Virus record (IMG/VR): IMGVR_UViG_3300024275_000009
Location: 1 to 56,026 of that record
Source: a virus
Taxonomy: Duplodnaviria > Caudoviricetes
Strand: one strand, 5' to 3'
DNA: 56,026 bases
Both the position numbers and the translations under genes were made by a program. The notes beneath the pieces were generated by a model. That model saw nothing but the letters and a program-made list of their open reading frames with translations. It was not told the DNA's origin and did not search any database. Of the stretch, positions 856 through 35,994 are shown piece by piece; position 1 is the stretch's first letter, and every line of letters starts with the position of its first letter.

Positions 856-1236
856 TTACTTCACACGAGCAGCCATCGCTTCGACGATATTCGAAGCCTT
901 CGTCGGCTTCTTTTTCTTCGGCTCGGGATTCGCCGGCGCCTTTGCCTTGTGCGGTTTGCTCAGCTTCGGCTTCGGCATGTGCTTGGCCTTGGCGGCTTGC
1001 AACTTGCGTGCGGCGTCGACCAGGTTCTTGCACGTCTGCACAACCGGCACGTCCGCTTCCCACTTCGCGGGCTTTTCCTTCTTGGCACCCGGGGTCGGCA
1101 CGTACTCGACGGCATCGCTTTGAACCACCGGCACGTCGGCCTTCCAGCCAGCCGGCTTCACTTTCTTCGCGCCGGGCGTCGGTTCGTACGTGACCTTATC
1201 GCCGGCCGCCAGGCGTTGCATTGCTTGGAGTTTCAT
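856..1236 (-). CDS. basic Lys/Pro-rich protein with N-terminal KLxAxxRLxA tag; putative internal head protein
   Basis: Starts MKLQAMQRLAA; has a 2 x 28-aa-period internal repeat. Confidence 0.7.
   Translation of the reverse strand: MKLQAMQRLAAGDKVTYEPTPGAKKVKPAGWKADVPVVQSDAVEYVPTPGAKKEKPAKWEADVPVVQTCKNLVDAARKLQAAKAKHMPKPKLSKPHKAKAPANPEPKKKKPTKASNIVEAMAARVK
1036..1188 (-). repeat. intragenic tandem duplication (84-nt period)
   Basis: YEPTPGAKKVKPAGWKADVPVVQ / YVPTPGAKKEKPAKWEADVPVVQ. Confidence 0.85.
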
Positions 1237-1625
1237 GACTCATCCTTGAGGTGATCGAGTAGCGCTTTGTTCTCTTTGAGGATCTTGGAGATGCCAGGAT
1301 TCAACTCGCTGGGCTTTCCCGTTCGATCCATGCCGGACATCCCTTCCAGAGACACGGTAAACATACCGAGCTCTTCCTGGCCTTCCGGGTCGATGTGCAT
1401 GGACGGCAGCACGTAGATGTCCACACGCACGCCGTCATCGTTCGGGTGCGCCTGCACCTCAACCGTGCGATTGTCGATAGACGGGTAACCACCGTCAGTC
1501 GAGAACGTGTAGCCGTAGCGGGAACCCCAGCGCTTCAGTCGGTCGGCCATCAACTTCTGATTGCCTTTCGACATCTGCTTGGCCGCGGTCAGCTTGAGGC
1601 GCGTGGCGGCTTCCAGCTTTACCAT
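1233..1625 (-). CDS. hypothetical protein with N-terminal tag
   Basis: MVKLEAATRLKLTAA; AAGGAG RBS; ATGA overlap with the next gene. Confidence 0.75.
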   Translation of the reverse strand: MVKLEAATRLKLTAAKQMSKGNQKLMADRLKRWGSRYGYTFSTDGGYPSIDNRTVEVQAHPNDDGVRVDIYVLPSMHIDPEGQEELGMFTVSLEGMSGMDRTGKPSELNPGISKILKENKALLDHLKDES

Positions 1626-1673
1626 AGTCGTTTCTCCTTTAACGGGGCCTGTGCAAGCGCCCCTACGACCTGG

Positions 1674-2438: not shown

Positions 2439-2502
2439 GATACCTTCCTTTGTGAAGATTGATGTAGCGATTGTGAACCTCCCGGGATGCAAACCCCGGT
2501 GG

Positions 2503-2829
2503 CTAGTACAACGCGAAGGTGTCGACCTCATCAGGAGGCAGATCGCCCTCGCCGGTCAAAGGCAGCGCAACCAGTGGTCGCGTTTGCCCTGCATACTGAT
2601 GCTTGCTGTCACTACAATACTGAATGTTGCCATCCACGATGAAGTAGTGACACAGACCCGGCATGTTGATCGATGGGCCAAACGTCGGCTTGAACGGGTT
2701 GCCGTTATACGTCCATTTAGCTGAGCAGTGATTCGGCTCCTCTACGTGGATGAGGTGAAACTGCTCACACCCTTCGCAGTAGTGGACGAGAGCCGGCCCC
2801 CACTTTGCCAAGATTGGGGAAAGGATCAC
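2503..2829 (-). CDS. DUF6527-like Cys/His protein
   Basis: YCEGC..H...WTYNG...PTFGPSI...CHYFIVDG.IQYC.D..H..AGQT pattern. The start is uncertain (GTG 2829 or ATG 2859/2877). Confidence 0.6.
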   Translation of the reverse strand: MILSPILAKWGPALVHYCEGCEQFHLIHVEEPNHCSAKWTYNGNPFKPTFGPSINMPGLCHYFIVDGNIQYCSDSKHQYAGQTRPLVALPLTGEGDLPPDEVDTFALY

Positions 2830-3925
2830 GGCTCTGCGGCGCTGGACTGCGTTGTTCATCCATGCCTGCGTGGTCATTCGCGTACTCCTCGACTGATGCG
2901 TCCCACGCTTCGTCCGGGATGTTGCCTTCGGACGCGTAGGTGCTGAACATGTCGACCACGGCCTGAATCATTTGCTCGTCATCAGGTTCGTCCGCGGCAA
3001 CGATCAACGCTGCATGACGTCTGCGGTTACGATTATGATTACGGTGAAAATGCGAGTCGTGGTTGTCGTCTTCATCGTCCTCGTCCTCATCATCCCAGTC
3101 GTCGGCATCGTCCTCGCGTTCATCATACTTCGACTCCCACTCCTTCTTCGTCTCGGAGATCCAGGTGTTGCGATCTTTCCAGTAGCCGTAAGGACTGATG
3201 CCTTTGTTGCCGGACGCCTTCCACGCAGCCGAGGACACATGCTTGACCTCTGACTCATCCTGTTCGGGACCTTGCGTTTTGAGACGCTTGATACCCTGCT
3301 TGACCAGGTTGCCCAAGGCCGGTTTGGCGATATGCTTCAACGCCATGAAGGTCAGGAAGCCAGCCGGACCAGACACACCCAGCGCACCCGCAAGCGCCGC
3401 CGAACCGAGAACGGTCAGGCCGATCTTGCGCATGTTCTTCCAGTCACTCTTCGAACCCTTATCCTGGAGGATGTTGGGAATCGACGTGAGGGCATGCGCC
3501 AGCTGCTTGTTGTCCTTGTAGACGTTCTTGGCGATAGCCTTCGACCGCTTCTTCAGCGTCTTGCCAAGAGCCTTGCGCGACTTGGAGCCAGCCGCGGTGT
3601 CACCTGACTTGATGAACTGCTGACCCTTCGCCGGCAGCTTATGAATCGCCTGCTTCGCTTTCGGCGTGCCACCCGGATTAGCTGGCGGCTGTTTCTTGAC
3701 CTGCTGCACCTGTCGTTTCTGTTGCGGCTTCTGCTGCGGCGATTGGTTGGTCGGCGCAACCTGCGTTCCTGGTTTGGTAGCAGGTACGTTACCTTTGCGC
3801 TTCCACCCCTTGGCATACTTCGACTCAGGGTGTTCCTTGACGTACTGCTCCTTCATGTCGTCGGTCAGCGCATCGAACCATTCACCGTCAGCAAGAAGCA
3901 GCCGCTTAGCCGCTTCGAGCTTCAT
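2765..3925 (-). CDS. tagged putative internal/ejection protein with a hydrophobic helix pair
   Basis: True start is MKLEAAKRLLLA at 3925. Contains basic Q/K/P stretches, hydrophobic IGLTVLGSAALAGALGVSGPAGFLTFMAL and an acidic tract. Confidence 0.7.
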   Translation of the reverse strand: MKLEAAKRLLLADGEWFDALTDDMKEQYVKEHPESKYAKGWKRKGNVPATKPGTQVAPTNQSPQQKPQQKRQVQQVKKQPPANPGGTPKAKQAIHKLPAKGQQFIKSGDTAAGSKSRKALGKTLKKRSKAIAKNVYKDNKQLAHALTSIPNILQDKGSKSDWKNMRKIGLTVLGSAALAGALGVSGPAGFLTFMALKHIAKPALGNLVKQGIKRLKTQGPEQDESEVKHVSSAAWKASGNKGISPYGYWKDRNTWISETKKEWESKYDEREDDADDWDDEDEDDEDDNHDSHFHRNHNRNRRRHAALIVAADEPDDEQMIQAVVDMFSTYASEGNIPDEAWDASVEEYANDHAGMDEQRSPAPQSRDPFPNLGKVGAGSRPLLRRV

Positions 3926-3939
3926 GGTTTGCCTTTTAC

Positions 3940-4474: not shown

Positions 4475-4693
4475 TCACATCATGCCGTTCGGCACGGGAT
4501 TCTGGATGTTCGTCAGCGAGGGACTTGCGTCCGCGCTTTCTTCGGTTACATCCATGTCGTCCGTGCCTTGTTCGTTGCTGGTGTCGCGCACGGCATCTTC
4601 GATTGCATCTGCCCCATAGGACGCCGACTCGCGCTTGGCCGATGCAATCAGACGTGCCGCAGCGTTCAGCTTGAATCGTTGTTTCTGGCTCAT
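4475..4693 (-). CDS. small acidic protein with tag, between sheath and tube genes
   Basis: ATG 4693 after GGAGAG; MSQKQRFKLNAAARLIAS. Confidence 0.65.
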   Translation of the reverse strand: MSQKQRFKLNAAARLIASAKRESASYGADAIEDAVRDTSNEQGTDDMDVTEESADASPSLTNIQNPVPNGMM

Positions 4694-8330: not shown

Positions 8331-9416
8331 TTAAACGCGCAGGCCCTTGGCGACCGAACGGCTGTTCGCCACCGACACAGCCAGCGACTCGTGCAGCACC
8401 CAGCCGCGACCCGGAACCTTCTCGACCACGATGTCCGTCGGTTGCGATTGCAGGCCGCCGCGATCCGAGTACGCGCCGTGGTTCGTTGAGTCCGAGATCA
8501 CGTAGAACTCGCCAGCGCCCAGCACCTTGTGTTCCGGGTGACGGTATGCGTCGGAGGTGATCGTGCAACCGTACATCACGCCGAGTTCGCCGGTCAGCAG
8601 GAGCTCGTGGCGTGCGACCGGGTCGACCGCGCTGTAGAACTCGCTGTTGCCGATGATGTCCTGGTAGATGTCCGTTGCCAGGAGAACGTGCGGTGCCTTC
8701 AGGCCCCAGCGCGTCACGTTCGTCATCACTTGCGCGAACGTGTACGGCGTGAGCTGACCCGAGATGATCGACAGGTTGTTGTCCACGCCGACCAGCGCGT
8801 TCACCTGGTTGTACCACAGACGGTCTTCCGCCACCATGATGGCTTCCGTCGCTTCGACATACTTCTCTTGCAGCACGTCGCCAGCCGACTGGTTCAGTTC
8901 GTTCTGCGTCACGAACGGACGCGTAACAACCGACAGTTCCGGCGGCGTGAACCACTTGTCGCGCGTGATCTGCGATTCGATCTTCGTCGGCGACGTCGAA
9001 TAGACGGCCGTCACGTTCTTCGTACGCAGCGGGAAACGCGGCACAGCGCCTTGCTCGACCGTGATTTCCGCGAGGTACTTACGCATGAAACCCTGACGGT
9101 TGCAGGTGAGGTACAGGCTTTCGGCCATGCGCTCGCCCAGCACCGTTTGCACGCCGCGGTCGTTGAACGCAGCTGCCAGGAGTTCCTTGTTCGTGCGCGT
9201 GTCGTTCTCGTTCTGCAGGAACACTGCATCGGCGACGACTTCGCGGTTCGCTGCAGCCGTCAGGAATTGCATCTGACGATTGAACAGGTCGCGCTTGCTC
9301 GATGCGTTCAGCTCGCCGCCAGCGCCGATAGCGCGTTCGCTCGTGCCGCGGAAACGCAGTTCCGATGCCGCAAATGCCGGGGTCTTCGCCGCACGGACTT
9401 GAACTTTCTGCTTCAT
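8331..9416 (-). CDS. major capsid protein (HK97 fold, putative)
   Basis: 361 aa with strongly biased codons; order protease-scaffold-decoration-capsid; AEDR...GELGVMYGCTII-like motifs. Confidence 0.8.
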   Translation of the reverse strand: MKQKVQVRAAKTPAFAASELRFRGTSERAIGAGGELNASSKRDLFNRQMQFLTAAANREVVADAVFLQNENDTRTNKELLAAAFNDRGVQTVLGERMAESLYLTCNRQGFMRKYLAEITVEQGAVPRFPLRTKNVTAVYSTSPTKIESQITRDKWFTPPELSVVTRPFVTQNELNQSAGDVLQEKYVEATEAIMVAEDRLWYNQVNALVGVDNNLSIISGQLTPYTFAQVMTNVTRWGLKAPHVLLATDIYQDIIGNSEFYSAVDPVARHELLLTGELGVMYGCTITSDAYRHPEHKVLGAGEFYVISDSTNHGAYSDRGGLQSQPTDIVVEKVPGRGWVLHESLAVSVANSRSVAKGLRV

Positions 9417-10254: not shown

Positions 10255-11868
10255 TTACAGGGACATCGGGCGGTCACCGTTCAGGATCGCGAGCGCTTTA
10301 GCCGAGAGCTGAACCTTGCCCTTGCCACCTGCACGCGATGCCGTCACAGCTGCGGGTTGGAGACGACGTGCCGGACGCACCAATGCAGCCTGGATCGTGT
10401 CCGGTGCATCCAGTTCGTCATCGAACTCGTCAGCGAAGTCTGCGTCGGCACCTTCATCGCCAGCGCTTTCCTCGATCTGACCATTCGGGCTCGCCGAATC
10501 ACCGAACAGATCGTCCTGATCTTCCAGGTCCGATTCGTCGGTCATGTCCAGCGCTTCGGCGATGGAATCGCGCGCAGCCTGCGACATTTGCGACAGCTTG
10601 TTCGCGAGCGTCACGATAGCCTTGGCATACGACACGCCATGCTGCGCGAACACACGCTGAACCATCTTCGAGGCACCGCGCACGCCTGCCGACTGCAGCT
10701 CTTGTTCGAGTGCAGCGCGCAGTTCGTTCTGCGTGTCCTTGAAGTGACGGCGGTTGATACCGACAGCCGCGATTGCCATGCACTGTTCGAGCTTGGCCGT
10801 CGAGCTGTGAGCCGAACGACGCACCGCAGCCGTAACCGTCTTGACCTTCGCTTCGACGCGCTTGTTCAGCACGTCCGACTTCGACACGTTGACGCGGGCC
10901 ATTGCAAAGCCCATGGCGCTGAGGCCCTTACGCATGCCGGCCTTGGCCATTTCGACTGCGCACGCGTCCTGGAATTCGTCGGACATGTACTCGTCGGCAT
11001 AACCAGCCTTCGTTGCCAGCTTCTTGCCCATGTGAGCAATAGCGCGCGTGCCCTTCAGTGCCAACAGACGCGTACCGTAAGCCGCGAACACCACGTCGTC
11101 GCCATCGTCGTTCATGCCGTCGATATCCACGATGGGCATATCGTCGCCGTCGCCCATCGGCTCAGCTTCGACTTCCGTGTCGTCTTCAACGTCGTCGCCG
11201 GTGAAGTTCTTGAATGCAGCGTCGTCAGCACCGAACTCGTCGCCCGTGCCTTCGCCACCCACGTCACCGCCGGCGTCGCCACCAGCTTCGTCTTCGCCGT
11301 CGTCCCACTCTTCGTCACCGGCTTCCAGCACCGATTGCGGGTTGCTGCCGTTGGACAGCTTGGCCGGCGCGTCGTCGAAGTCGGCTTCGATGGCGTCCGG
11401 ATCTTCCAGGTCGTCGAACTGATCTTCGTCTTCCGACGCGTTCGTGAGATAGCCAGCGGCCGGATCCACGTCGTTCGGAATGTGGCCGACGTCCTGCGTG
11501 CAGTTGTCGTCCTTGCCGGTGATGTCCGCGTTGACTTCTTCCTCGTCATCTTCGTCGTTGTGACGCGGACGCTGGCTGGGGAGACGCCCAGCGTCGTCTT
11601 CGTCATCATCCGAGCCGGCCGGGAATTCAGCGTTGACCGGCTTACCGGCCTTCACCTTCTTCTTCGCTGCAACCGCCGGCTTGTTCTTCTTCGAAGAAGC
11701 TTCAATCGGCGTATGCGTGTTGCCACCGGTGTCGTCTTCCGGATCGATCAACGTGCCCGGCGACTGGTGGTTCAGCAGTGCACCCGCTTCATCCTGCGCA
11801 GGCGCGTTGGTTTCGTTCTTGAAGTGAGTGCTGGTGCTAGCTCGCACTTGCGTCTTCTTGAGCTTCAT
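10255..11868 (-). CDS. prohead scaffold/core protein
   Basis: Very acidic disordered N-half and helical C-half; many [VIL]xA sites; between protease and capsid genes. Confidence 0.7.
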   Translation of the reverse strand: MKLKKTQVRASTSTHFKNETNAPAQDEAGALLNHQSPGTLIDPEDDTGGNTHTPIEASSKKNKPAVAAKKKVKAGKPVNAEFPAGSDDDEDDAGRLPSQRPRHNDEDDEEEVNADITGKDDNCTQDVGHIPNDVDPAAGYLTNASEDEDQFDDLEDPDAIEADFDDAPAKLSNGSNPQSVLEAGDEEWDDGEDEAGGDAGGDVGGEGTGDEFGADDAAFKNFTGDDVEDDTEVEAEPMGDGDDMPIVDIDGMNDDGDDVVFAAYGTRLLALKGTRAIAHMGKKLATKAGYADEYMSDEFQDACAVEMAKAGMRKGLSAMGFAMARVNVSKSDVLNKRVEAKVKTVTAAVRRSAHSSTAKLEQCMAIAAVGINRRHFKDTQNELRAALEQELQSAGVRGASKMVQRVFAQHGVSYAKAIVTLANKLSQMSQAARDSIAEALDMTDESDLEDQDDLFGDSASPNGQIEESAGDEGADADFADEFDDELDAPDTIQAALVRPARRLQPAAVTASRAGGKGKVQLSAKALAILNGDRPMSL

Positions 11869-12051: not shown

Positions 12052-12423
12052 TTACTGCTTGCCGAACTCGATCTGCACTGTCTCGTTCGGATCCTTGTGG
12101 AATTTCTTTTTCCAGCGATTGAACGCGTCCTTGGTGATAACACGCACTAGTGCATCACCTTGACGGTAAGCATCCATGTCGCCGCTGTATTCGTGGTCGA
12201 GCTTGAGGCCGTGCTGCTCGAGTTTCTTGCGAATCCCGTTAAGCTTTGCCAAAGGCGTGACCGCGGTATTCAACATCAAGTCGCCGTTCTTCTTGGGTGC
12301 CGGGTGTTTGAACTGAACACCAAAGCTCTCAAGCAGATTCTGCAGGTCTTCCGGGCTGTCGATAGCCGCCGCAGTGATCGCGGTGGCCTTCAGGCGCATT
12401 GCTGCTTCGAGTTTCATGTTCAT
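12052..12423 (-). CDS. hypothetical protein with N-terminal tag
   Basis: MNMKLEAAMRLKATA. Confidence 0.7.
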   Translation of the reverse strand: MNMKLEAAMRLKATAITAAAIDSPEDLQNLLESFGVQFKHPAPKKNGDLMLNTAVTPLAKLNGIRKKLEQHGLKLDHEYSGDMDAYRQGDALVRVITKDAFNRWKKKFHKDPNETVQIEFGKQ

Positions 12424-12426
12424 CCT

Positions 12427-13362
12427 TTATTCGTCGAACGGATAGGTGAACACCGGATCCTTCACCGGCGTAACATCAGGGCCTGACGCACGCAGCGCAG
12501 GTGTCAATGGTTGTTGACCAGCCGCAGCCCACGGATCCCACACTTCGTCCGACAACGCCGGTGCCCATGCCGGGTCGGCAACAATCGAACACTCGATGGG
12601 AGCAAGACCGTGCGCGTTCAGGAACGCCAGATGTTGCGAGCCGTCGAAGTCCTTGACCGAGCGCCAGTTGACTGCCTTGGTCGACTGAATGTGCGGACAG
12701 ACATACTTATCGTGACACTCGGCGCCGCAGAACGAACAGGTGAAGGCATCGACCATGGCACCCATCGAGTAGGTGTTGATCTGCTTCGTCAACACCTTCT
12801 GCGCAACATCCGGGTACTTGTTCTTGTCGATAGCCAGCAGACCCATCACCTTCCACAGCTTGCCGCCACCGAAGCCGGTGACCTTGTGCAACGACGCGTC
12901 GAGAATCACGCCGTACGCCTTGGTGTGATCCTCGTTGTCATGCTCGAGGTGTACCGGACAGCCCTTCCACGCCTTGTACGCCATGCGCGAGATCGGCGGC
13001 GGTTGCCACTTCGCCAGCTCGGTAATCGGAAAGCCGATGCCGTTGCGGTTGGGAATGTCCGACGGACAGATCAGCGTGTTGACCAGGATGTAATCCTCGA
13101 TCTTCGGGCTGATGTGGTACTCCTTCGCGCAGAAGGGCAACCATGTCGGATAGTCGAGCGCGTTGACCATCGACTTGTCACGCTCGAGATCGACGGTCTC
13201 GGTCGCCTGCACCGTCGGCGTGGCCAGCAGCTTCGTATTCAAGGCATCACGTTGCGCGTCCTGAACCGATGCGTGCGTGTGCTTGTAGACGGGCTTGAGC
13301 GCCGTCGACTTGTCCTTCTTCAGACCGTTGGACGCGGTCAGAAATGATTGAGGCATACGCAT
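12427..13362 (-). CDS. prohead maturation protease (putative; HK97/herpes-like fold) with a Cys-rich insert
   Basis: Start at ATG 13362 (AAGGAGG RBS). NRNG, PVHLEH (His), YSMG (Ser), CSFC...CPH and ECSIVADPA motifs. Confidence 0.75.
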   Translation of the reverse strand: MRMPQSFLTASNGLKKDKSTALKPVYKHTHASVQDAQRDALNTKLLATPTVQATETVDLERDKSMVNALDYPTWLPFCAKEYHISPKIEDYILVNTLICPSDIPNRNGIGFPITELAKWQPPPISRMAYKAWKGCPVHLEHDNEDHTKAYGVILDASLHKVTGFGGGKLWKVMGLLAIDKNKYPDVAQKVLTKQINTYSMGAMVDAFTCSFCGAECHDKYVCPHIQSTKAVNWRSVKDFDGSQHLAFLNAHGLAPIECSIVADPAWAPALSDEVWDPWAAAGQQPLTPALRASGPDVTPVKDPVFTYPFDE

Positions 13363-13372
13363 GACTGCCTCC

Positions 13373-20989: not shown

Positions 20990-20990
20990 G

Positions 20991-21308: not shown

Positions 21309-21320
21309 CACGGCCTCCAT

Positions 21321-23030: not shown

Positions 23031-23606
23031 TTACCACAGATCGATGTTGAGGATCGAGTCGTGGACGCTGATCGAGATTTCGTTAGTGCCTTTACGCCAC
23101 ACGTCCATCTTGTGCGACATGGCACCTCTCTTGGTGTACTTGAAGCCGTCGTGCTCAACCTGGTTGATGACCTTCACGGCCTTCTGGTAGGCGTCAGCCG
23201 GCGAATGACACTTGAAGCTGTTGCCACCGGTCGAGATGTCGAAGCCGGCTTCGTCCATCAGCACATCGCCAGCGAACACGCGCCGCTTGCTAGCTTGCAC
23301 CTTCTCGCCCAACGGATACGCATCGTCCAGCGAATACTCCTTGCCGTCGATCATGATGTCCGTGATCTTGTCAGCGCCGTCACCATCGAAGCCGAACTGA
23401 ATGTCGCCTTCTTCCCAACGGCCTTCCGATTCACCTGGCACGTCTTCGATAGTGATGGTACGCGAAGCGCCAGCCGAACCGAGGAACGCCAGAATGCGCA
23501 GCAGCTTCGGTATGAGGAACTGAGCCTCGCCGGTGGCCTTGAACGAGATCTCTGACTCGTCCTGCCAGCTCTTGGCGGTTAAACGTTTGAGTGCGTTAAG
23601 CTTCAT
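23031..23606 (-). CDS. two-domain hypothetical protein with N-terminal tag
   Basis: MKLNALKRLTAKS; TGATG overlap with the upstream stop. Confidence 0.7.
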   Translation of the reverse strand: MKLNALKRLTAKSWQDESEISFKATGEAQFLIPKLLRILAFLGSAGASRTITIEDVPGESEGRWEEGDIQFGFDGDGADKITDIMIDGKEYSLDDAYPLGEKVQASKRRVFAGDVLMDEAGFDISTGGNSFKCHSPADAYQKAVKVINQVEHDGFKYTKRGAMSHKMDVWRKGTNEISISVHDSILNIDLW

Positions 23607-24415: not shown

Positions 24416-25945
24416 TTAACGAATCGCCGGGTAGCCTGGCAGGTAGCGGCCCCACATCGAAGCCGGGGTGATGGTGATACCCACAGCGCCGATTGCACCC
24501 GGAGCCAACGCCGACGGGTCAGCCGAGCCGTCACCCTTCGTCTGGCCTTTGATGATTAAATTCTGCTTCAGCGGCTTCAACTCGGAATCGAGACGCGACT
24601 GAATCTTCGAAGCGCCGTTGTCCAGGTACTGCGTGCGGTCGACGTTCAACGAGATCGATGCACCCTGGAAGTCGAACGCCTTCTCGCCTTCAGCCAGGTA
24701 TTGCGACTCGAGCGCAAACAGTTCGGCGTACAGCAACCAGAACTCGCGGATGATGCCCTTGGCGTTGGTGAAGGTGAACGACGTGAACTGGCCATAGGCA
24801 CCGTTGAAGCTGTCGCCAGCACGACGCAACCAGGTCATGATGGTCGTCTCCGGGAACAGCATATCCGGTGAGCCATACAGCGTGGTGCGGGCCTTGTTGA
24901 TCTTGGCCTTTACGTCATTGATGGCCGACGAGATGGTCGGGTTGATGATGTACAGGTCCGCGCGCTCGCTGAACACCTCACCGGGGTTGGCCGAGCTCCA
25001 CATCTTCCACAGCACCGAGTACGGCACCAGCGTAACCGGCATCGCATCGGTCGGAATCACGCCAGCGTAGTAATAGCCGTTGGCCACGCGGTCCGGCGCA
25101 GCCATCGCCGTCTCCGGCAACAGCACGGTGTTGTCCAGGAAGATCGTGACCGTGACGTTATCGTACAGCTTGTCGGTGACGACTGACAACGTACACGGCG
25201 TGCCTTGAAACTCCACCACCGACTCGGTACCCAAAGGAACCGTATTCAGCCCGACAACACGAATGCTCTCGTAACTGAAGAAGGTGTTCTGTTGCATGTC
25301 AGCCGACAGCGGGTCGAACTGGGCCTGATTCGAAACCGGCAGCTGCAACGTGTAGCGCAACTGATAACGCTGGCCGTCCGCCGTCGGAGGCACCGTGGTC
25401 GGCACTGTCACCACCGCGTGGGCGATCGCCATCTTGCTGATGCCGTTGTCGCGGATCGTGTAGTCGAACGCGTTGCCGCCAGCGTACACCACGCCTTCCT
25501 TGTCGAGCAGTTCCCAGATGACAAAGCCACCGGACGGATCGACCTCGGGCGGGAACGTGAAGATCGCGGTACCGATAGCGCCCCGGCCGGCTTCGACTTC
25601 ATCGACCAGATCCATGTAGGCGTCGGGTGCTGCCGTGGTATACGGCGTGTACGACTGCGGTGATGCCACCACGGCTGCCAGCGTGAAGTTCAATACGCGA
25701 GCTGTGGTCGTTACCACCATCTGTGCACCGTAGGTCACATCAGCGGCGCCCGCAGAGAGCAGTAGCTGCACAATCGGGTTCACTCCCGATTGAACAGCCA
25801 TGGTGAATGCCGGATTGGTGAGCGGCGATACCGTACCAATCGCAATGGATTGAATCGTTTCACCGACGCCGAGCTTCGAGGTAATGTCAGCTTCGACGGC
25901 CGTGTCCTGGCCGTAGAGCGTCGCAAAGACAAACGTGTTCTTCAT
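24416..25945 (-). CDS. virion structural protein (possible neck/adaptor with Ig-like domains)
   Basis: 509 aa; beta-rich N-terminal part and helical C-terminal part; GAGG RBS. Confidence 0.6.
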   Translation of the reverse strand: MKNTFVFATLYGQDTAVEADITSKLGVGETIQSIAIGTVSPLTNPAFTMAVQSGVNPIVQLLLSAGAADVTYGAQMVVTTTARVLNFTLAAVVASPQSYTPYTTAAPDAYMDLVDEVEAGRGAIGTAIFTFPPEVDPSGGFVIWELLDKEGVVYAGGNAFDYTIRDNGISKMAIAHAVVTVPTTVPPTADGQRYQLRYTLQLPVSNQAQFDPLSADMQQNTFFSYESIRVVGLNTVPLGTESVVEFQGTPCTLSVVTDKLYDNVTVTIFLDNTVLLPETAMAAPDRVANGYYYAGVIPTDAMPVTLVPYSVLWKMWSSANPGEVFSERADLYIINPTISSAINDVKAKINKARTTLYGSPDMLFPETTIMTWLRRAGDSFNGAYGQFTSFTFTNAKGIIREFWLLYAELFALESQYLAEGEKAFDFQGASISLNVDRTQYLDNGASKIQSRLDSELKPLKQNLIIKGQTKGDGSADPSALAPGAIGAVGITITPASMWGRYLPGYPAIR

Positions 25946-25948: not shown

Positions 25949-26149
25949 TTACCTCGTAACCAGCAGCCGCTTGACCGCTTCAAGACGTACGCGGCCAATC
26001 AGGCTGTTATTCAGGTTCGGTTGCAGCACCGTGTTGACGCCAGGCGAATCCGTCGGGTTGTGTCCCGGCCGGCCCTCCTCGTCACGGTGTTCGTTGTAAT
26101 CTTCGTGCCACACCGACGTATCAGTAGGGTCGATTACCTGTTTAGGCAT
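25949..26149 (-). CDS. small protein with a C-terminal copy of the tag
   Basis: GGAG RBS; ends RVRLEAVKRLLVTR. Confidence 0.6.
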   Translation of the reverse strand: MPKQVIDPTDTSVWHEDYNEHRDEEGRPGHNPTDSPGVNTVLQPNLNNSLIGRVRLEAVKRLLVTR

Positions 26150-26472
26150 ACCGTGATTCTCCGCGGTGCGTTCTGCATCAGCTTCAACTCGAAGTTGCCA
26201 CCGGTCATGATGACGGCCTCGCCCGAGGTATACAGACCGCCGTCGGCAATCCGTCGATCCTTCTCAGTGTAGCGGTGTGCGTCCAGGATCTCTATCGCGT
26301 CGTGCATGTCGGTGCGGATGACAATCATGTCCTGGTCGTCATCCGTATAGTCGGCTTCAACGCCACCGTCCCGGAAGTACTGCAACACCGCACGCATTAC
26401 CACGCGCGCCTCGGTAATCAACGACGCGTTGACTCGCGACGCCATGAGACGTCGCGCAGCTTCGATCTTCAT
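26134..26472 (-). CDS. hypothetical protein with N-terminal tag
   Basis: MKIEAARRLMASR; ATGA overlap. Confidence 0.7.
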   Translation of the reverse strand: MKIEAARRLMASRVNASLITEARVVMRAVLQYFRDGGVEADYTDDDQDMIVIRTDMHDAIEILDAHRYTEKDRRIADGGLYTSGEAVIMTGGNFELKLMQNAPRRITVCLNR

Positions 26473-27779
26473 GAGTTGGCCTGGTTGATGATGGTGATTA
26501 CCTTGCGCAGCTGTTGGTCGGTCAGACCAAAACGCTCTTGCAGGAATTGCGCATCATAGGTCGAGATGTCAGTGCCTTGCGCCACGGAGATGATGGTGAA
26601 GGCGATCTCCTTGTTGGTGTACGTCACCTTCAGCTTGGCGCCACGCGAATTCTTGATGAGCTGCTTGACTTCCTGATACAGCTGGTAGGCAATCTCCTTC
26701 GCCTGATCCTTGGAGACACCCTTACGCAGCGAGAACACCAGCTTGTCGTCATCGACCGTCAGCTTACCGATGAACTCCTTGTAGCTGAAGATGTTCGGGT
26801 CGATCTGTGCCGATGGCTTGCGCAGCTGCTGCGACAGCGGGATGGTACCCAGCGAGGTCGCGAAGTCTTCCAGCTCCAGCAGGTGGCTGATAGCCTTCAC
26901 AGCTTCGCCAGCCGATTCAACGCCGGTGCCACCCGACTTCAGCAGCGCGTTCGGTGCCTCGTACTCGTGGTTGACCTGCACCTCGACCTCGTTGGCCGTC
27001 ACCTTCCACTGAATCGAGATGTACAGATGCGGCGTTGTCGCGCCTTCATCGTTGGTCGCGTTGATGAGCATGAGGTAGTACGTGAAGACCAGCTCACCTT
27101 CTTCGTCGATATGCACGTACAGGAACAGGTTCGAATCCTCGAACAGCACGTGCTCCGACACCTCAGCCGACACGGCATTCATGTACTTCTTGAACTCGTT
27201 CGGTACGTGTTCTTCAGCCACATCCGAAAGGAAGCCCAGCACCGTCTTCAGCTGAGCACCAACCTTGTCGGTCAGGGTCTTCAGCGACGCCATGGCGTTG
27301 TCGTAAGCCTCGCCGCGACGGTCGGGGAACTGCATGGCCAACTGCGTCTGCATGGCTTCCAGCGTACGATGCTTCTCGTACAGATCTTCAGCCAGCGCGT
27401 AATTGTCCTTGAGCTTACTCAGGTTGGGGACAACGATCTTCTTGATGAGGTCCGGGTTGATCTTCTTCTTTTGATTCCGGCGACGCTTGGCTGCGTCCTT
27501 GTCGTTGTCGTCATCATCGATAACGAATTCCATCTGGGCAGCCTGCACCAGCGCCGCCTGGACGTTGGCCTTGGGCTTCAGCAGGTACGCCAGGCTCTTC
27601 TGCACCTGACGAATGATCTGGTCGGTGTCACGCGTCTCCTCCGTCAGCTGCTCCAGGTAACGCACAGCGTCATCCAGGTAACGGAACTTCGGCAGCTCAA
27701 CGCCCGACGAGCGCACCACCTTTTCATGCTGCTTGCGATATGCGGTCAGACGGGCAGCGGCCTTGAGTTTGGTAACCAT
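26469..27779 (-). CDS. putative virion protein with N-terminal tag
   Basis: MVTKLKAAARLTAY; 436 aa; GAGGA RBS. Confidence 0.7.
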   Translation of the reverse strand: MVTKLKAAARLTAYRKQHEKVVRSSGVELPKFRYLDDAVRYLEQLTEETRDTDQIIRQVQKSLAYLLKPKANVQAALVQAAQMEFVIDDDDNDKDAAKRRRNQKKKINPDLIKKIVVPNLSKLKDNYALAEDLYEKHRTLEAMQTQLAMQFPDRRGEAYDNAMASLKTLTDKVGAQLKTVLGFLSDVAEEHVPNEFKKYMNAVSAEVSEHVLFEDSNLFLYVHIDEEGELVFTYYLMLINATNDEGATTPHLYISIQWKVTANEVEVQVNHEYEAPNALLKSGGTGVESAGEAVKAISHLLELEDFATSLGTIPLSQQLRKPSAQIDPNIFSYKEFIGKLTVDDDKLVFSLRKGVSKDQAKEIAYQLYQEVKQLIKNSRGAKLKVTYTNKEIAFTIISVAQGTDISTYDAQFLQERFGLTDQQLRKVITIINQANS

Positions 27780-29980: not shown

Positions 29981-31516
29981 CTACATGCCGGGACCGTACA
30001 GGTTCACGGTGAAGCTGACCGCATAGGAAAGCGCAGCCGACAGGGTGATGGTGATGACGTTCCCGTTGTTGCTGAGCACGGCTGTCGCTGACCCGAGGCT
30101 TTGACTGGTGCGGAATGTCGGCAGCCAATTTCCGCGACTGCACGCCTCGAAGTCGAGGGCCGTATAGGAAGCCTGGGTAGCACCCGCTGGAATCGTCAAC
30201 ACCGGCGGGTTATACGCCTGCGGGATAATCCGCGCCTTCACCGTACCGGACAGGAAGGTGGTGCCAGGCGGATTAACGTTATGTAGTCGACAGGCGGAAA
30301 TGCCACGTGAGTTGTTGTTCTGAACCTTGATAACGCCTGACTTGAACGGCGCCAGTGTACCGGCACCACCTGCATCGAGCGCATCATTCAAATCCAACCC
30401 TTCGATGTAACCGATCTTGATGGCATAATCCTGCGCTTCGGCAACGATGGGCACCGCGCTGCTTTGCAACGAATCCCAGCCGGTTGCGGAAAGCTTGAGC
30501 TGATAGACGTTCGAGTCGGTCGGCACCAGGTTGATGAACGCGTTGCCCAGCCGCTCACACGAAACCCGATTCCACACTGAGGACACAGTCAGGCCCGCGG
30601 TGTTCGTTCCTGGCAGGCGCGGGTCCAACACATCCGATTGGTAGGCGAAGTACGGGGTGTAGCCCAGGAAGTAATTGTCGAGATCGGCATGAACTCCCAT
30701 GCTGCCGTTCTTAGGTAGGTAGAAGGTGGCCCGCAGTTCGGCGTTGCTGAAGCAGTTCGTCCACTTCCAATCGCCGCCCGTGCTGAGGATACACCACGTG
30801 GCGTAGTTGCCGTTACCTCCGAGATTGTCGAGTGAGCTGTGACCGTTGTTGGTCCACGCCGTGTAGGCGAAGCGCACACCTTTGACCAGGATGTCGCGAG
30901 CATCAAACTTGAGGTTGCCGCCGTTGCCGAAGACGATGCCGTCCATTTGACAGCCGACGTTACCAACCTGTGCGCCACCCTGACCCGGTCCCTGAATGGT
31001 GAAGCCGCGATACTTGATGCGACTGAGCGCACCGGTAACTGCGTAGACGGACAGGGCGGCTGTACCCGGACCCATGTCGGTCTTCCACTTCAAGGTCACG
31101 CCATCGACAAAACCACCCGAGTCATGATCCGAGCACATCAGATGCCTGTCTGTCAGTGACAGCTGGGTGCCCGTGCAGTCGTAGACGCCACGCACGAGTT
31201 TCGCGACTGGTGTCAGGGCCGAACTGAATGCCGCCTGCACGTTGACACCCGTGGGTGTCGCGCCGGTATAGTCGGCACCAAACCACGACGCCGAATGATA
31301 CTCGTTGTAGATCGATCCGACTATTGACCCACCTTGCGACAGGTCGAAGATCTGCTGAAAGTCATTAGCGTCGATATAGGCGTTGGCAAACGTTATTGTC
31401 ACACCCGCTGCCGGTTGAAGCACGCCACCCCAGTCGAAGCTGACACGACCACTCAGCGTCACATTCGACGTGACTGGAGTCAGGGCACTCACACTCATGG
31501 TACTTAGCATTGTCAC
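29981..31516 (-). CDS. beta-helix tail spike/fibre-like protein (pectate-lyase-like)
   Basis: ASWFGAD.TG...VQAA...GVY N-terminal pattern of beta-helix spikes; G/N/T-rich. Confidence 0.6.
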   Translation of the reverse strand: MTMLSTMSVSALTPVTSNVTLSGRVSFDWGGVLQPAAGVTITFANAYIDANDFQQIFDLSQGGSIVGSIYNEYHSASWFGADYTGATPTGVNVQAAFSSALTPVAKLVRGVYDCTGTQLSLTDRHLMCSDHDSGGFVDGVTLKWKTDMGPGTAALSVYAVTGALSRIKYRGFTIQGPGQGGAQVGNVGCQMDGIVFGNGGNLKFDARDILVKGVRFAYTAWTNNGHSSLDNLGGNGNYATWCILSTGGDWKWTNCFSNAELRATFYLPKNGSMGVHADLDNYFLGYTPYFAYQSDVLDPRLPGTNTAGLTVSSVWNRVSCERLGNAFINLVPTDSNVYQLKLSATGWDSLQSSAVPIVAEAQDYAIKIGYIEGLDLNDALDAGGAGTLAPFKSGVIKVQNNNSRGISACRLHNVNPPGTTFLSGTVKARIIPQAYNPPVLTIPAGATQASYTALDFEACSRGNWLPTFRTSQSLGSATAVLSNNGNVITITLSAALSYAVSFTVNLYGPGM

Positions 31517-31740
31517 TTCCTTGCGGTTGCGAGCAGACGGGCAACCGCTTCGAGAGGTTTACGGCTGTCATATACAGCGGCCGAGTGTGTCATGTTCTTG
31601 TAGATGTGCATGGTCAAAGGCCAGTTCTGATCGCCGTGATCCTTACCCGCAGCGTCCTTGGCCTTGTCCCACTTTTTCTCAAGTGACTTCACAGTGCCCT
31701 TGCCTTCACGTGCATCCTTCTTGATCTTTGACGTAGGCAT
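31513..31740 (-). CDS. small basic protein with a C-terminal copy of the tag
   Basis: LEKKWDKAK...IYKNM; ends KPLEAVARLLATARK. Confidence 0.65.
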   Translation of the reverse strand: MPTSKIKKDAREGKGTVKSLEKKWDKAKDAAGKDHGDQNWPLTMHIYKNMTHSAAVYDSRKPLEAVARLLATARK

Positions 31741-31746: not shown

Positions 31747-32061
31747 TCAGCCCTCGAAGTGTTCCTGGATACGTTCAATAGCGTGGTAGGCAGGATTGCC
31801 GGGCGCCATATGATTCAGCGCTTCTTCCAGCGGCTTGATGTGCCAATCAATGCTGCTGTTGATCTTCTTAGCCAGATCCTCGCGCTCTTTGAGGATTCGT
31901 TCAGCCGTTGTCTTCTTATAGACGCCAGGCGCCGCGGCTTTCGGCCAGGTGGTTTGTCGTCCGCGCCCGGCGGTGCCGATCACCACCCACGCATTGCCCG
32001 GCACGCCGTCCGACTGATCTTCGGAGGCCATCAACCGGTGTGTTGCTTCAATCCTAATCAT
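31747..32061 (-). CDS. hypothetical protein with N-terminal tag
   Basis: MIRIEATHRLMASE; AGGAG RBS. Confidence 0.7.
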   Translation of the reverse strand: MIRIEATHRLMASEDQSDGVPGNAWVVIGTAGRGRQTTWPKAAAPGVYKKTTAERILKEREDLAKKINSSIDWHIKPLEEALNHMAPGNPAYHAIERIQEHFEG

Positions 32062-32070: not shown

Positions 32071-32586
32071 CTAGCGTGTTTGCGTAAAGCTGCGCAGGAT
32101 CTGCAGCGAGAGGCTGTCAGCCAGCAGCGTCTTGACACCCGGATGCAGCGGCGACGGCCAGTCTCCGAACTCCACCCAACGGAATCCTTGCGTCTCCCAG
32201 TTCAGCTTGGGCGTGAATTCCTTGGGTACGAGCGCGGCGAAGTTGTGATACTGGAAGCCCTTGTCGGCGTCCTTGAAAACGAGCATCGGCCGCAGGCGAA
32301 GCTTACCCTTGTAGCCGGCCTCCTCGCGCAGTTCACGACGCACGGCCACCTCGGGATTTTCGCCACCGTCGATAGCGCCACCCCAGCTGCCCCAGGTGTT
32401 AGGCTCCAACACGTTGCGGGAGCGATGCGGAAACAGGATGCGGCCGGTGTCCTGTGCGACAGGAAGACAGCCAGCACCGCGCTTGCCCCAGTAGCCGGTC
32501 TTCTCGAGCATCTCTTCGTGGTCGGAATCATCCGGCGAGTGCAATGATTCCGCAAGCAGCCTTTGCGCTGCGTTGAGCTTGAGCAC
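32071..32586 (-). CDS. Nudix hydrolase with N-terminal tag
   Basis: Nudix box GGAIDGGENPEVAVRRELREEAG; MLKLNAAQRLLA; AAGGAGG RBS. Confidence 0.9.
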   Translation of the reverse strand: MLKLNAAQRLLAESLHSPDDSDHEEMLEKTGYWGKRGAGCLPVAQDTGRILFPHRSRNVLEPNTWGSWGGAIDGGENPEVAVRRELREEAGYKGKLRLRPMLVFKDADKGFQYHNFAALVPKEFTPKLNWETQGFRWVEFGDWPSPLHPGVKTLLADSLSLQILRSFTQTR

Positions 32587-32595: not shown

Positions 32596-33033
32596 TTACT
32601 GATTCAGGTATTCCGCTTCGTCTTTGATGTCTTTCATCACTTCCGACTTCAGCGGATGCTTGAGACCTTTCAGCGCCCGCGTCACGTCCTTGAGCTGACG
32701 CATACGATCACGCTTCGACGACTCCCAGTACTCCGAACCCGGCTTGATGCTCTGGTCGGCTTCCCAGCCGGCGACCGGATAGTCCTTGGAGATGCCGACG
32801 TCTCCATCCGAGAAGGTGACGACGCTGTAGTGGCCGATGCGCATATGCGTACGCGAGCCCATGTCACGACACTTCTTCGAGAACTCCCAGTTGCCTTTCG
32901 AGCTGGTCGAACGGAACTTCATCGGCTCGCGGCCGTGCTCTTCCGAGAAGTAGATGGTGCAGGGGCCGGGTATTTCGTCATGCACGCCAGCCGCCGAGAG
33001 TTTGAGACGTTGCGCCGCTTCGAGCTTAACCAT
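32596..33033 (-). CDS. hypothetical protein with N-terminal tag
   Basis: True start is MVKLEAAQRLKLSAA at 33033. Confidence 0.7.
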   Translation of the reverse strand: MVKLEAAQRLKLSAAGVHDEIPGPCTIYFSEEHGREPMKFRSTSSKGNWEFSKKCRDMGSRTHMRIGHYSVVTFSDGDVGISKDYPVAGWEADQSIKPGSEYWESSKRDRMRQLKDVTRALKGLKHPLKSEVMKDIKDEAEYLNQ

Positions 33034-33049
33034 GATTGGTTCCTTTCGC

Positions 33050-33331
33050 TTAGTCGACCGAGTCGACAATGTTCGGGTTGTTGACGTTGAGACGCTGCGT
33101 TGCCTTGTCGGCCACCTGCTGCATGCAGCGATAGTAGACGTTGTTGCCTTGCTGGGAACGAACGATCTTGCCTTTCATCAGCGGACTTGCGTCACCCTTG
33201 AAAATCGACTTGAGCGATTCGGGGTTGTACTTGTCCGAGCTGATAAGCCGGCCCATCTTGTTGTAGACGTAGACTTCAACCTCGCCGGAACGGGCGATCA
33301 GTCGTTGCGCTGCTTCGAGTTTGATTGTCAT
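33050..33331 (-). CDS. hypothetical protein with N-terminal tag
   Basis: MTIKLEAAQRLIARS. Confidence 0.7.
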   Translation of the reverse strand: MTIKLEAAQRLIARSGEVEVYVYNKMGRLISSDKYNPESLKSIFKGDASPLMKGKIVRSQQGNNVYYRCMQQVADKATQRLNVNNPNIVDSVD

Positions 33332-33343
33332 GGCTCACTCTCA

Positions 33344-34681
33344 TTACCAGTTATTAAACATGCGGCGCAACTCGCGCTTTTGCGAACGACGCTCGCTCTT
33401 CTGATTGTAGTACGACCGGATACGCATTTCCTTGCGCTTACCGGACTCACCTAACAGCAGGGCCTTGTCTTCATCCGAGCCAGCCCATTGAAAGATGGCT
33501 TCGGCCGGCACCAACTGGAAGCGCTCGCTGTGCAGGTACGAGCGATCGAAGGCTGCGTACTTCTGGCGGTTCTGACCTGTCGGGCAAACGATCAGACAGT
33601 GCGTGATCTTGTTGTCCCAGTTGACAGTCGCCAGACACGGATCGTCCACCCGCCACATACGCTTCAGGCCCTGATCCTTGATCTGCTCCTGGACGATCTC
33701 GCGCTTCTGTTGACGCTCTTCCTTCTTGCGCTCGTGCTCGTCCTTCTCGTCGTCCGTCATGTAGGTCGAGTTGTCGTTCGGATCGAAACGACGCGGGTTC
33801 AGGCCGACCTTGCGCATCCAGGTGATCCAGTTCGGACCATGACCCTGTGCGGTGCGATCAACCACGCGGTCGATTTCCGACACGGCCTGGTGACACATCT
33901 CATGCAGGAAGATCTCGACGAAGAAGTTCTGGCTGGCGTTGTACAGACGCGGCGATACTGACAGCTGGCGACGCATGGCCATCCAGTAACCGCGCAAACG
34001 CATCTTGCCGGCCGCCTGCATCTTCAGAAGGCCGAGGTACGGCTGCTTCATCTTGCCGCCGAACTTCGTCTCGTTCAGGAAATCCCACAGCCGCTTGTTG
34101 AACGACAGCCGATAGGTACGGTCATCGTTGGTCTGACAGAAGCGATACATCTTCTGCAGCTGCTCAGGGATATGCGTGACCGGCACCTGCGAGTCATCGT
34201 TTTCCTTCGAGCCCGGGTTGTTCGGCGAATCCTTCGGATTGAACTTCGGCGGCACGTCGTCTTCCGGATCGAAGTCATTCACACCCGGCTTCAACTTGGG
34301 CGGTTCCTTGACCTTCGGCGGCTTCGCTACCGGCGGCTTCGCCTTCTTCTCGACCTCGGGCGGCACGTGCGTCTCGACACCCTTGAAGTTCTTCGAGTTG
34401 CGCTGGCTGTTCTTCAGCACAACAATGCGCGTCGATTCCTTGAGGATGATGTTGCCGTCCAACCCGAACTTCCAATACAGATCGGTACGACCGGTCGGCT
34501 TCGGCTGCCCGAAGTGCTTGTCCAGGAACTTGCGGTCCATACCCGAATACTTGAACGAGATGCGATCCTCGCTCGACAGCTTCGGTTGCAGGCCGGTGAA
34601 GCCCAGCGATTCAAGGAACACCTTGGCCTGCTTTTCGTCGGCCTTGGCGGCCATCAGGCGATATGCGGCTTGGAGTTTCAT
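33344..34681 (-). CDS. SprT-like zinc metalloprotease with N-terminal tag
   Basis: LNETKFGG...FLHEMCHQ...GHGPNW SprT signature; MKLQAAYRLMAA. Confidence 0.85.
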   Translation of the reverse strand: MKLQAAYRLMAAKADEKQAKVFLESLGFTGLQPKLSSEDRISFKYSGMDRKFLDKHFGQPKPTGRTDLYWKFGLDGNIILKESTRIVVLKNSQRNSKNFKGVETHVPPEVEKKAKPPVAKPPKVKEPPKLKPGVNDFDPEDDVPPKFNPKDSPNNPGSKENDDSQVPVTHIPEQLQKMYRFCQTNDDRTYRLSFNKRLWDFLNETKFGGKMKQPYLGLLKMQAAGKMRLRGYWMAMRRQLSVSPRLYNASQNFFVEIFLHEMCHQAVSEIDRVVDRTAQGHGPNWITWMRKVGLNPRRFDPNDNSTYMTDDEKDEHERKKEERQQKREIVQEQIKDQGLKRMWRVDDPCLATVNWDNKITHCLIVCPTGQNRQKYAAFDRSYLHSERFQLVPAEAIFQWAGSDEDKALLLGESGKRKEMRIRSYYNQKSERRSQKRELRRMFNNW

Positions 34682-35994
34682 TTATACCTCTTCATCATCT
34701 CATTGACCTGATCTTCTTGATCCTGCTCGTCTTCCTTCATCTCGTGCAGGTAGTCGGCGAAGCTTCGCATGTCACGCGAGCGCAGCTCACCTTCACTCGG
34801 CTGACCCGGCAGCGGGATCATGCGCCAGATGTTGAGGCGCGACACGGTCATAAAGCGCCCGGTTTTGGTACCTGACGGATGAATCGCAAGGTACGACTGT
34901 TCCTTGGCATCCTTCGGGCAGACGATCATTACGTTCAGGATCTCTTCCTTGAAGAGGATGGTCGCCACGTCCTCATTGCGCGGCTTGACGTTGTGTACCA
35001 GCCGCTCAACCGGGTAACGCAAGCCGAACTGCACACGAATACGTGCTGCCAGGATGTCGGTCTTGTCCGCCAGAATCTCCTTCTGCTCTTCCGGCTTCAG
35101 GTAAGTCAGGTTGTCGTTCAGGTCGAAGCGCTCGGGCTTCAAACCAACGCGCACCATCCACTGTTTCCAGTTGGGGCCGTGGCCGGCTTCGGTACGGTCG
35201 ACTACGCGATCAATCTCAGACACTGCCTGGTGGCACATCTCGTGCAGAAAGATTTCCGTGAAGAAGAACTGCGAGGCGTTGAAGATACGCGGGTCCATTG
35301 CCAGACGCCGGGTCATCGCATGCCACCAACCACGCGTACCGAAGGCACGGTTCGGCGTCAACTGGTCAATCATCAAATGCGGCATGCGCAGTCGACCTTC
35401 GAACTTGCGCCGATTCAGGTTCTCCCACAGCGCACGCATGAAAGCCATGCGCACCGTGCGATCATGGTAGCCGGCGACCTGGGCAGCACGATACATGTGC
35501 TCCAGGTTATCCGGGATCGGGATCTTCGGTACGTTCTTGTTGTCGACTTCGCGACCCTTGGTGGGCGGCTGCTGATTCGGTGGTACAGGCAACGGGCCCG
35601 CCGGGCCCGGCTGCTTGATGTACTTGCCTTTGTCGTCGATAACCGGATGCGAGCCCGGCAGGTTATCCGGCACGTAGGTCGGAATCGGTTTGTGGTGGGT
35701 TGAGTTGCGCTTGCTGTTCTGCAGCACCACCGTCTTGGTGTTCGGCTTGACCACGATACGGCCGTCTACACCGAAGCGCCAATACAGGTCAGCGCGACCC
35801 ACCGCAGCCGGCTTGGCATCACCCAACCGCTGCTTCATCTCGTCTTCGTTGAACGACTGATACTTGAACGAGATACGATCTTCGGACGAGAGCTTCGGCG
35901 ACAGCCCGATGAACCCGATTGATTCGAGGAACACCTGGGCTGAGCGCTCGTCAGCCTTCGCCGCTATCAGTCGATAGGCAGCTTCGAGCTTCAT
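34678..35994 (-). CDS. SprT-like zinc metalloprotease (paralog) with N-terminal tag
   Basis: LNRRKFEG...FLHEMCHQ...GHGPNW; MKLEAAYRLIAA. Confidence 0.85.
   Translation of the reverse strand: MKLEAAYRLIAAKADERSAQVFLESIGFIGLSPKLSSEDRISFKYQSFNEDEMKQRLGDAKPAAVGRADLYWRFGVDGRIVVKPNTKTVVLQNSKRNSTHHKPIPTYVPDNLPGSHPVIDDKGKYIKQPGPAGPLPVPPNQQPPTKGREVDNKNVPKIPIPDNLEHMYRAAQVAGYHDRTVRMAFMRALWENLNRRKFEGRLRMPHLMIDQLTPNRAFGTRGWWHAMTRRLAMDPRIFNASQFFFTEIFLHEMCHQAVSEIDRVVDRTEAGHGPNWKQWMVRVGLKPERFDLNDNLTYLKPEEQKEILADKTDILAARIRVQFGLRYPVERLVHNVKPRNEDVATILFKEEILNVMIVCPKDAKEQSYLAIHPSGTKTGRFMTVSRLNIWRMIPLPGQPSEGELRSRDMRSFADYLHEMKEDEQDQEDQVNEMMKRYK

Follow-up and report, generated by a model that had tools for sequence, protein, structure and literature searches.

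What is the role of a short peptide that opens one gene after another in the virion region of a phage genome, on proteins that are otherwise mostly unrelated? The question is raised by the IMG/VR record IMGVR_UViG_3300024275_000009, which spans 56,026 bases and was analyzed over its full length (hereafter, the window; coordinates refer to its minus strand unless marked otherwise). Seventeen minus-strand genes of the window, revealed by a regular-expression scan and then by a position matrix, start with an 11-residue element of the form M-K-[LI]-x-A-A-x-R-L-x-A (hereafter, the tag). The best reading, in our opinion, is that of a virion-loading leader analogous to the capsid-targeting sequence (CTS) of phage T4, because the pattern matches the signature of the T4 internal proteins; we give this reading about an even chance.

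The preliminary description of this DNA, based on its letters only, had listed 16 such N-termini, and the motif was present on the minus strand at 16/16 of them, as judged by the regular-expression scan and by inspection of the N-termini. A 17th N-terminal copy (21.9 bits), absent from that description, was found at 20605: it opens a protein of 121 amino acids (20240..20605) if translation starts there, and may otherwise be an internal tag of the 268-residue open reading frame (ORF) 20240-21046. When all six frames of the window were scanned with the position matrix built from the 17 copies (cut-off of 12 bits), the copies themselves scored 21.9–34.1 bits, and the score exceeded 12 bits at three other places. 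Two of these are the C-terminal copies described below; the third, at 9505 on the plus strand (16.6 bits), belongs to a reading frame that runs antisense to one of the structural genes and was taken as a chance match. As a control, 20 codon shuffles of the window were scanned, of which 18 gave no match above 12 bits and 2 gave one match. All the tag copies lie within the head/neck/tail block (0.8–36 kb), while the core structural proteins encoded there, that is the head protein, portal, sheath, tube, scaffold-like protein and protease, are untagged. Beyond 36 kb, where greedy calling yields 36 minus-strand ORFs, the matrix gave no match above 12 bits, in line with the earlier claim that the accessory genes at 37.7–56 kb are free of the tag.

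In the 17 copies Ala5, Arg8 and Leu9 are invariant and Lys2 is kept in 16/17, the variable positions being 4, 7 and 10 (i, i+3, i+6). As these positions vary while the remaining eight of the 11 are conserved, the pattern points to a helix that lies buried, in a groove or a helical bundle, with one exposed face and about three quarters of its surface covered. The stretch of roughly ten hydrophobic residues that follows the basic N-region of Sec/Tat signal peptides was not found, charged or polar residues occupying positions 2, 4, 7 and 8. The tag sets in 1 to 7 residues after the start codon, and a Shine-Dalgarno sequence could be recognized by eye within 25 nucleotides upstream of 15/17 copies, being weak at 20605 and 26472.

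An element repeated at gene starts might also be a nucleic-acid signal (a translation enhancer, a repressor site or a recombination hotspot) which only mimics a peptide motif, and the codons of the tag are indeed skewed, relative to the genome usage, towards rare A-ending ones: GAA encodes 9/9 Glu, CAA 7/7 Gln and GCA 8/17 of the Ala5 residues, AAA being preferred as well. Such a preference for A-ending codons is commonplace at the 5′ ends of genes. The invariant residues, on the other hand, use four to five codons each, with AGG beside CGN and TTR beside CTN: Arg8 is written as CGT, CGC, CGA, CGG or AGG, Leu9 as CTG, CTC, CTA, TTG or TTA, and Ala5 with all four alanine codons. Moreover, the fraction of identical codons at same-residue tag positions is 0.378, a lower value than the 0.437 ± 0.034 predicted by the codon usage of the phage itself. 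Considering these two facts, the constraint acts on the peptide, as had been proposed from the letters alone. The existence of C-terminal copies, as well as the preservation of the amino-acid pattern across relatives with 50–80% identical head proteins, also speaks against a nucleic-acid signal, which we hold to be barely credible and which the codon data bring close to refutation.

The window is assigned to a phiRSL1/BcepSauron-like jumbo myophage, of which it is a fragment, on the basis of head protein identity and collinear gene order. Its major head protein (8331..9416; PHROG 2522, E = 2e-96; untagged) is 72–77% identical to those of phiRSL1 (Ralstonia) and of BcepSauron, BcepSaruman and BCSR5 (Burkholderia), and 61% identical to that of Achromobacter phage Motura, all of which have genomes of 221–264 kb; the gene order follows phiRSL1 ORF107-146 and BcepSauron gp075-gp100, so that head protein, portal, sheath and gene arrangement are all common to the window and these two phages. 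A megablast of 20 kb of the window against phage records gave no match. For analysis of the distribution of the tag, 87 IMG/VR loci were collected around homologues of the head protein and the portal, and 91 related loci were scanned at a cut-off of 14 bits. At least one match of 14 bits or more was present in 67/91 loci. The 129 distinct copies found in them (with Met directly before the Lys position in 73, and no more than four residues upstream of it in 113) gave the lineage consensus M-K-[LI]-[NQE]-A-[AK]-x-R-L-x-A-[TAS].

In complete relatives the matches clustered around the portal and head genes. All 14 profile matches of a 245.5-kb genome lie at 174.5–206 kb, around the portal/head genes; in a 218.9-kb genome, 13/18 lie at 5.5–38.8 kb, two at the adjoining end and three weak ones elsewhere; in a 217.6-kb genome, 8/10 lie at 61.9–89.5 kb. 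The replication and early-type gene blocks of the complete genomes gave no tag copies in the profile scan. BcepSauron has five matches, four of them in the head block, and in relatives the tail-tube gene is succeeded by series of small ORFs that bear the tag. In Motura a dialect of the tag, M-x-I-Q-A-[AR]-x-R-L, starts 13 of the 28 coding sequences annotated in RefSeq around the portal; the N-terminal position is confirmed by these gene calls, since they are independent of ours. In a more distant relative, the IMG/VR locus L064 (59% identity in the head protein), five ORFs at about 12.1–19.5 kb have another leader in common, M-K-L-T-A-H-Y/F, which suggests a lineage-specific version of the same device. 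The similarity of tags is slightly higher within a genome (0.578) than between genomes (0.542), a difference reached in 0/1000 label permutations. The exact DNA pattern of the window dialect matched a single stretch in IMG/VR, because the relatives have other residues at positions 3, 4 and 6. No published description of the motif was found in a literature search that reached few subscription journals and no supplementary tables.

The bodies behind the tag behave quite differently from the tag itself. After removal of the first 20 residues, only two tagged proteins matched each other (t16 and t17, 43% identity, E = 1e-95) and no other pair did at E < 0.01, so that the earlier statement on dissimilar bodies, with the pair of SprT-like proteins as the exception, was reproduced. 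For 14/17 tagged proteins (72–436 amino acids) no family was found in Pfam or PHROGs, and none of the tagged proteins has a MuF or polyvalent-protein Pfam domain. Among 44 gene calls of the window (17 tagged, 27 untagged), 9/17 tagged genes gave no BLAST match among all ORFs of 92 related loci, versus 3/27 untagged ones, most structural genes having 20–72 matches. Where orthologues of t03, t07, the NUDIX and the SprT-like genes are present, they mostly keep the tag. Thus the tagged bodies are hypervariable, while the leader is conserved lineage-wide.

Four of the tagged genes are located among the tail genes. The first, t01 (856..1236, start at 1236; 126 amino acids), encodes a basic protein of net charge +17, within which a unit of about 24 residues (core Y-x-P-T-P-G-A-K-K-x-K-P-A-x-W) is repeated in tandem; in t02 (1233..1625; 130 amino acids) the tag follows M-V; neither has a homologue in the 92 related loci by BLAST. 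In t03 (2765..3925; 386 amino acids), which like t01 and t02 matches no Pfam or PHROG family, the tag is followed by a second conserved motif, W-F-D...H-P-x-S. Its family, with 18 BLAST matches in related loci, of which the majority keep the tag, has this motif directly after the tag in the form W-F/W-D-x-L ... Y-L-K-x-H-P-x-S, and BcepSauron gp075 (576 amino acids) carries two such tag-plus-motif modules in one protein. The gene t04 (4475..4693; 72 amino acids, tag from residue 8) is located between tail sheath and tail tube, a slot filled by a tagged small ORF in most relatives, including BcepSauron gp077, though the bodies are unalignable.

The remaining carriers surround the head genes. 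Between the prohead protease and the scaffold-like protein lies t05 (12052..12417; 121 amino acids); a variant tag is present on its positional counterpart in phiRSL1, ORF133. Next to the 20605 copy follow t07 (22204..22542; 112 amino acids), which keeps its tag in the orthologues phiRSL1 ORF120 and BcepSauron gp091, t08 (23031..23606; 191 amino acids) and t09 (23606..24406; 266 amino acids), directly downstream of the portal gene; the start of t10 (26134..26472; 112 amino acids) overlaps the stop of t11 (26469..27779; 436 amino acids). Further genes recognized by the motif scan, as were t04, t05 and t08–t11, are t12 (31747..32061; 104 amino acids; an R-I variant of the tag), t14 (32596..33033; 145 amino acids) and t15 (33050..33331; 93 amino acids).

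Enzymes are found in three cases. The product of t13 (32071..32586; 171 amino acids) is a NUDIX hydrolase, whose domain sets in at residue 36 (Pfam PF00293, E = 3.7e-15; PHROG 1198); a PHROG annotated as portal protein matches this domain as well. Both t16 (33344..34681; 445 amino acids) and its paralogue t17 (34678..35994; 438 amino acids) encode SprT-like metalloproteases (Pfam PF10263). The AlphaFold2 (AF2) model of t16 (predicted local distance difference test score, pLDDT, 85) displays a Spartan-like protease core and a Tudor/SH3-like C-domain; its best fold match is the human Spartan protease domain 6mdw (probability 1.00, E = 0.014), which backed the marginal Spartan match of the PDB sequence search (E = 0.74). 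The tag is present in 26/55 homologues of t16, some of which place about 12 Cys-rich residues ahead of it. The two domain types, encoded by separate tagged genes in the window, are combined in a 740-residue metagenomic homologue (P0149), and in Motura an HNH gene adjoins the SprT gene. According to the accessible part of the work of Iyer and colleagues (PMC7824862), one to three SprT-like peptidases occur in some jumbo phages and host targets have been proposed for them.

The family of t11, examined by motif scan, homologue alignment and AF2, offers the clearest view of how the tag is joined to a body. Of its 74 homologues, 67 were aligned and 31 of these are tagged; the close ones have the tag and a basic linker of 10–35 residues before the conserved body, and the distant ones, likewise Motura gp157 and BcepSauron gp094, start at the body and have no extension at all. 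In the AF2 model of t11 (pLDDT 80) the tag is a low-confidence helix (residues 7–17) and the linker (residues 18–34) is disordered or of low confidence. No solved structure in the PDB matched the body at E ≤ 0.001, and the protein atlas yielded nothing of use on either t11 or t03. At the junction, A, G or S occupies P3 in 31/31 tagged members, and the anchor residue is Glu in 50/67. The head protein N-termini across the lineage show A-A-S/T-E about 20 residues in. The prohead protease motif of giant phages reads A/S/G-x-E. Their proteases cut after a P3-x-P1 motif, as stated in the accessible part of PMC10052503. Based on these three features, i.e., the small residue at P3, the head protein N-terminus and the P3-x-P1 motif, the extension of the t11 family looks like a removable propeptide. 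Head protein and scaffold-like protein also have a hydrophobic-Q-V-R-A-like strand motif in common at their N-termini, which recurs where the linker ends in t11 homologues and which could represent a further element of assembly or processing.

Two proteins of the window carry a tag-like helix at the C-terminus: a 75-residue protein (31513..31740; 16.6 bits at 31557, minus strand) and a 66-residue protein just upstream of the portal gene (25949..26149; 13.3 bits at 25987, minus strand). The stop of the former overlaps the GTG start of a 511-residue ORF (29981-31516). The N-domain of the 75-residue protein, the tag and a further domain share one frame in phiRSL1 and in three relatives from metagenomes, and the two ORFs of the window (29981-31740, minus strand) could thus represent a pair that is either split or coupled. 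At the place of the 66-residue protein, BcepSauron has a protein which also ends in a tag-like helix (12.8 bits), and its gp075 and gp077 contain a second, internal tag copy each. Because of these C-terminal and internal copies, and of the residues ahead of the tag in SprT homologues, the element appears from its placement to behave as a portable docking helix.

Taken together, these data are compatible with the following scheme. The tag would be a portable amphipathic helix by which accessory proteins attach to some conserved part of the particle under assembly, the prohead core or shell being the most likely one; the cargo would thereby be enclosed and would later leave with the DNA, the tag thus binding a virion component and the cargo being ejected. 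In at least some of the proteins the leader may be removed by the prohead protease at the A/G/S-x-E junction. The T4-like capsid-loading signal of the preliminary description stands in so far as a short helix recurs as a portable module on unrelated and hypervariable proteins, stays within the morphogenesis block, is kept across the lineage in genome-specific dialects, and is followed by a flexible linker and, in one family, by an A/G/S-x-E junction. It does not stand as a strictly N-terminal signal, and four of the tagged genes are neighbors of tail genes.

Several observations weigh against the loading scheme. Unlike the T4 leader, the tag also occurs at the C-terminus and internally. The genes t01–t04 lie among tail genes, hence gene location does not single out the head. 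The t11 orthologues of Motura, BcepSauron and phiRSL1 have no tag, and consequently the t11 family does not depend on it. phiRSL1 itself gives no profile match, displaying only a looser variant of the tag on ORF109, 120, 127 and 133. Among 85 tagged proteins, A/G/S-x-E occurs within 16 residues after the tag in 31%, versus 19% further in, and in view of this weak enrichment a universal cleavage site was dropped; general cleavage of the tag is not supported. For the head maturation protease (12427..13452; PHROG 18299, E = 3e-83) neither a Pfam family at E ≤ 0.01 nor a PDB sequence match was obtained, and its family is not established. As another candidate for a general cleavage element, hydrophobic-x-hydrophobic-x-A-A/P was tried and rejected (0 in 1615 positions).

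The scaffold-like protein (10255..11868; 537 amino acids, acidic, untagged, located between protease and head protein) is a candidate receptor. In an alignment of 22 sequences, long Asp/Glu-rich disordered stretches flank one conserved helical domain, and the C-terminal tail is conserved. This C-terminal segment resembles the tag loosely, with a score below 12 bits, and scaffold mimicry is no more than a lead. Co-folding of the 34-residue tag alignment (57 rows) with the head protein (39 aligned sequences) and residues 240–537 of the scaffold-like protein (22 aligned sequences) gave a score of 0.00 and no verdict in both runs, which counts neither for nor against binding; it was also a three-chain job unlike those of the tool's calibration.

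The same helix could serve assembly only, docking minor structural parts of head, neck and tail to a scaffold or a phage chaperone, with no role in delivery. The confinement of the tag to the morphogenesis block, the presence of tagged genes between sheath and tube as well as behind the latter, and the conserved t11 family near the portal would all suit such a handle, but it leaves the principal building parts, from head protein and portal to sheath and tube, as well as the scaffold-like protein and the protease, without it. Moreover, hypervariable bodies that include NUDIX and SprT-like enzymes are unusual for building blocks, and we therefore judge this explanation rather unlikely. A buried helix of portable position would suit any docking motif, also one that addresses proteins to another site in the cell, such as a membrane assembly site, a replication factory, DNA or, as in contractile injection systems, the lumen of the tail tube, to which the small tagged ORF arrays behind the tail-tube gene of relatives might point. 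The tag, however, has no hydrophobic stretch for membrane insertion and is missing from the replication and early-type blocks, so this alternative seems improbable.

Turnover or processing is another function conceivable for such a peptide: a host or phage protease would recognize the helix and time the abundance of late accessory proteins. Most copies are N-terminal, A-D-E follows the tag in 13 of the 26 tagged SprT homologues, and the junction of the t11 family was mentioned above, all of which is consistent with a processing signal. The C-terminal and internal copies and the offset of 1–7 residues from the start are not, and a degron would leave both the restriction to the virion block and the genome-specific dialects unexplained; we consider this idea decidedly improbable. 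The virion-loading leader, in turn, is favored by the types of cargo, as NUDIX and SprT-like proteins fit those delivered with DNA elsewhere.

Besides the tagged genes, nearly all other long ORFs of the window are also located on the minus strand, the head-neck-tail block of about 0.8–37 kb being followed by a small-gene block (37.7–56 kb). The tail sheath (4746-6692) was recognized by PHROG, as was the untagged portal/head-tail connector (24416..25945; PHROG 17327, E = 1e-74). Between the prohead protease and the portal an untagged SNF2-type helicase of 1587 amino acids is encoded (14335..19098; Pfam), conserved as phiRSL1 ORF129 and BcepSauron gp088; by its location within the head block it is reminiscent of anti-restriction proteins of helicase type that are packaged. 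A small ORF of the head block (20991-21320) resembles phiRSL1 ORF122, annotated as an HNH endonuclease. A topoisomerase IB of eukaryotic/poxvirus type (35991-37640; Pfam Topoisom_I, E = 6e-21) is located directly upstream of the tagged SprT pair, as seen for phiRSL1 ORF108.

The nearest precedent is phage T4, whose internal proteins Ip1-3 have, according to the accessible text of two papers, only an N-terminal leader in common, which directs their packaging into the scaffolding core; the proteins are injected and block host restriction, and the cargo genes are diverse and fast-evolving (PMC12373910, PMC3012670). As far as described there, the likeness comprises a short leader common to otherwise unrelated proteins (here 17 copies with one related body pair), fast-changing cargo behind a kept leader, and untagged core proteins. 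Unlike the T4 leader, the present one belongs to another phage lineage, has 17 carriers instead of three, including enzymes of up to 445 amino acids, can be placed C-terminally or internally, and is known from sequence alone. The sequence of the T4 CTS itself presumably differs from that of the tag. Compared with the T4 system, the other lineage, the many more carriers and the flexible placement would be new.

Short portable peptides that bind the inside of an HK97-fold shell and work at either terminus load cargo into encapsulins. An encapsulin is a shell with no portal, tail or genome, whereas portal, sheath, tube and protease are all present here. In PVC-type extracellular contractile injection systems, an N-terminal packing signal of about 50 disordered residues loads unrelated payloads into the tube lumen, the payload genes following the tail genes. 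The Dar proteins of phage P1 are anti-defence enzymes which are carried in heads and delivered with the DNA. For MuF-anchored polyvalent proteins, the accessible part of Iyer 2021 (PMC7824862) describes anti-defence helicase-methylase, metallopeptidase and NUDIX-type domains, which are carried in the head and delivered with the DNA. In these two systems the cargo either forms part of giant fusion proteins or relies on partner proteins. The enzyme-type cargo, metallopeptidase and NUDIX included, is similar to that described for these two systems, but here it is encoded by stand-alone genes (72–445 amino acids) with the same leader on each and with no fusion to a head-anchoring domain. Head proteins of phiKZ, 201phi2-1 and SPN3US lose N-terminal propeptides to the prohead protease, and in the accessible part of PMC10052503 the authors suggest a targeting role for them. 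The t11 junction and the head protein N-terminus fit a small-residue-x-Glu site of that kind; unlike the tag, those propeptides are mostly 111–254 residues long and, in that part of the paper, no common short motif is given for them.

It is possible, at somewhat less than an even chance, that phiRSL1-like jumbo phages use a readable loading code, in which a helix at either end of a protein or inside it loads any protein and the dialect of each genome matches its receptor. If so, the entire injected arsenal would be listable from sequence alone; here it would comprise some 19 proteins, among them a NUDIX hydrolase and two proteases of the DNA-dependent type, and no phage would be known with a larger set of cargo defined by a leader. 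As the tag occurs in cultured phages (Motura, BcepSauron), the idea can be put to the test directly. The tag would offer an entry point to the prohead receptor and, with its 11 residues, a compact means for loading foreign proteins into large capsids. Phage-injected proteins are the first to meet host defences, and outside T4 they are rarely recognizable from sequence; a leader of this kind would single out dozens of "hypothetical" genes as candidate early-acting effectors, in a jumbo-phage lineage that is widespread in soil and the rhizosphere.

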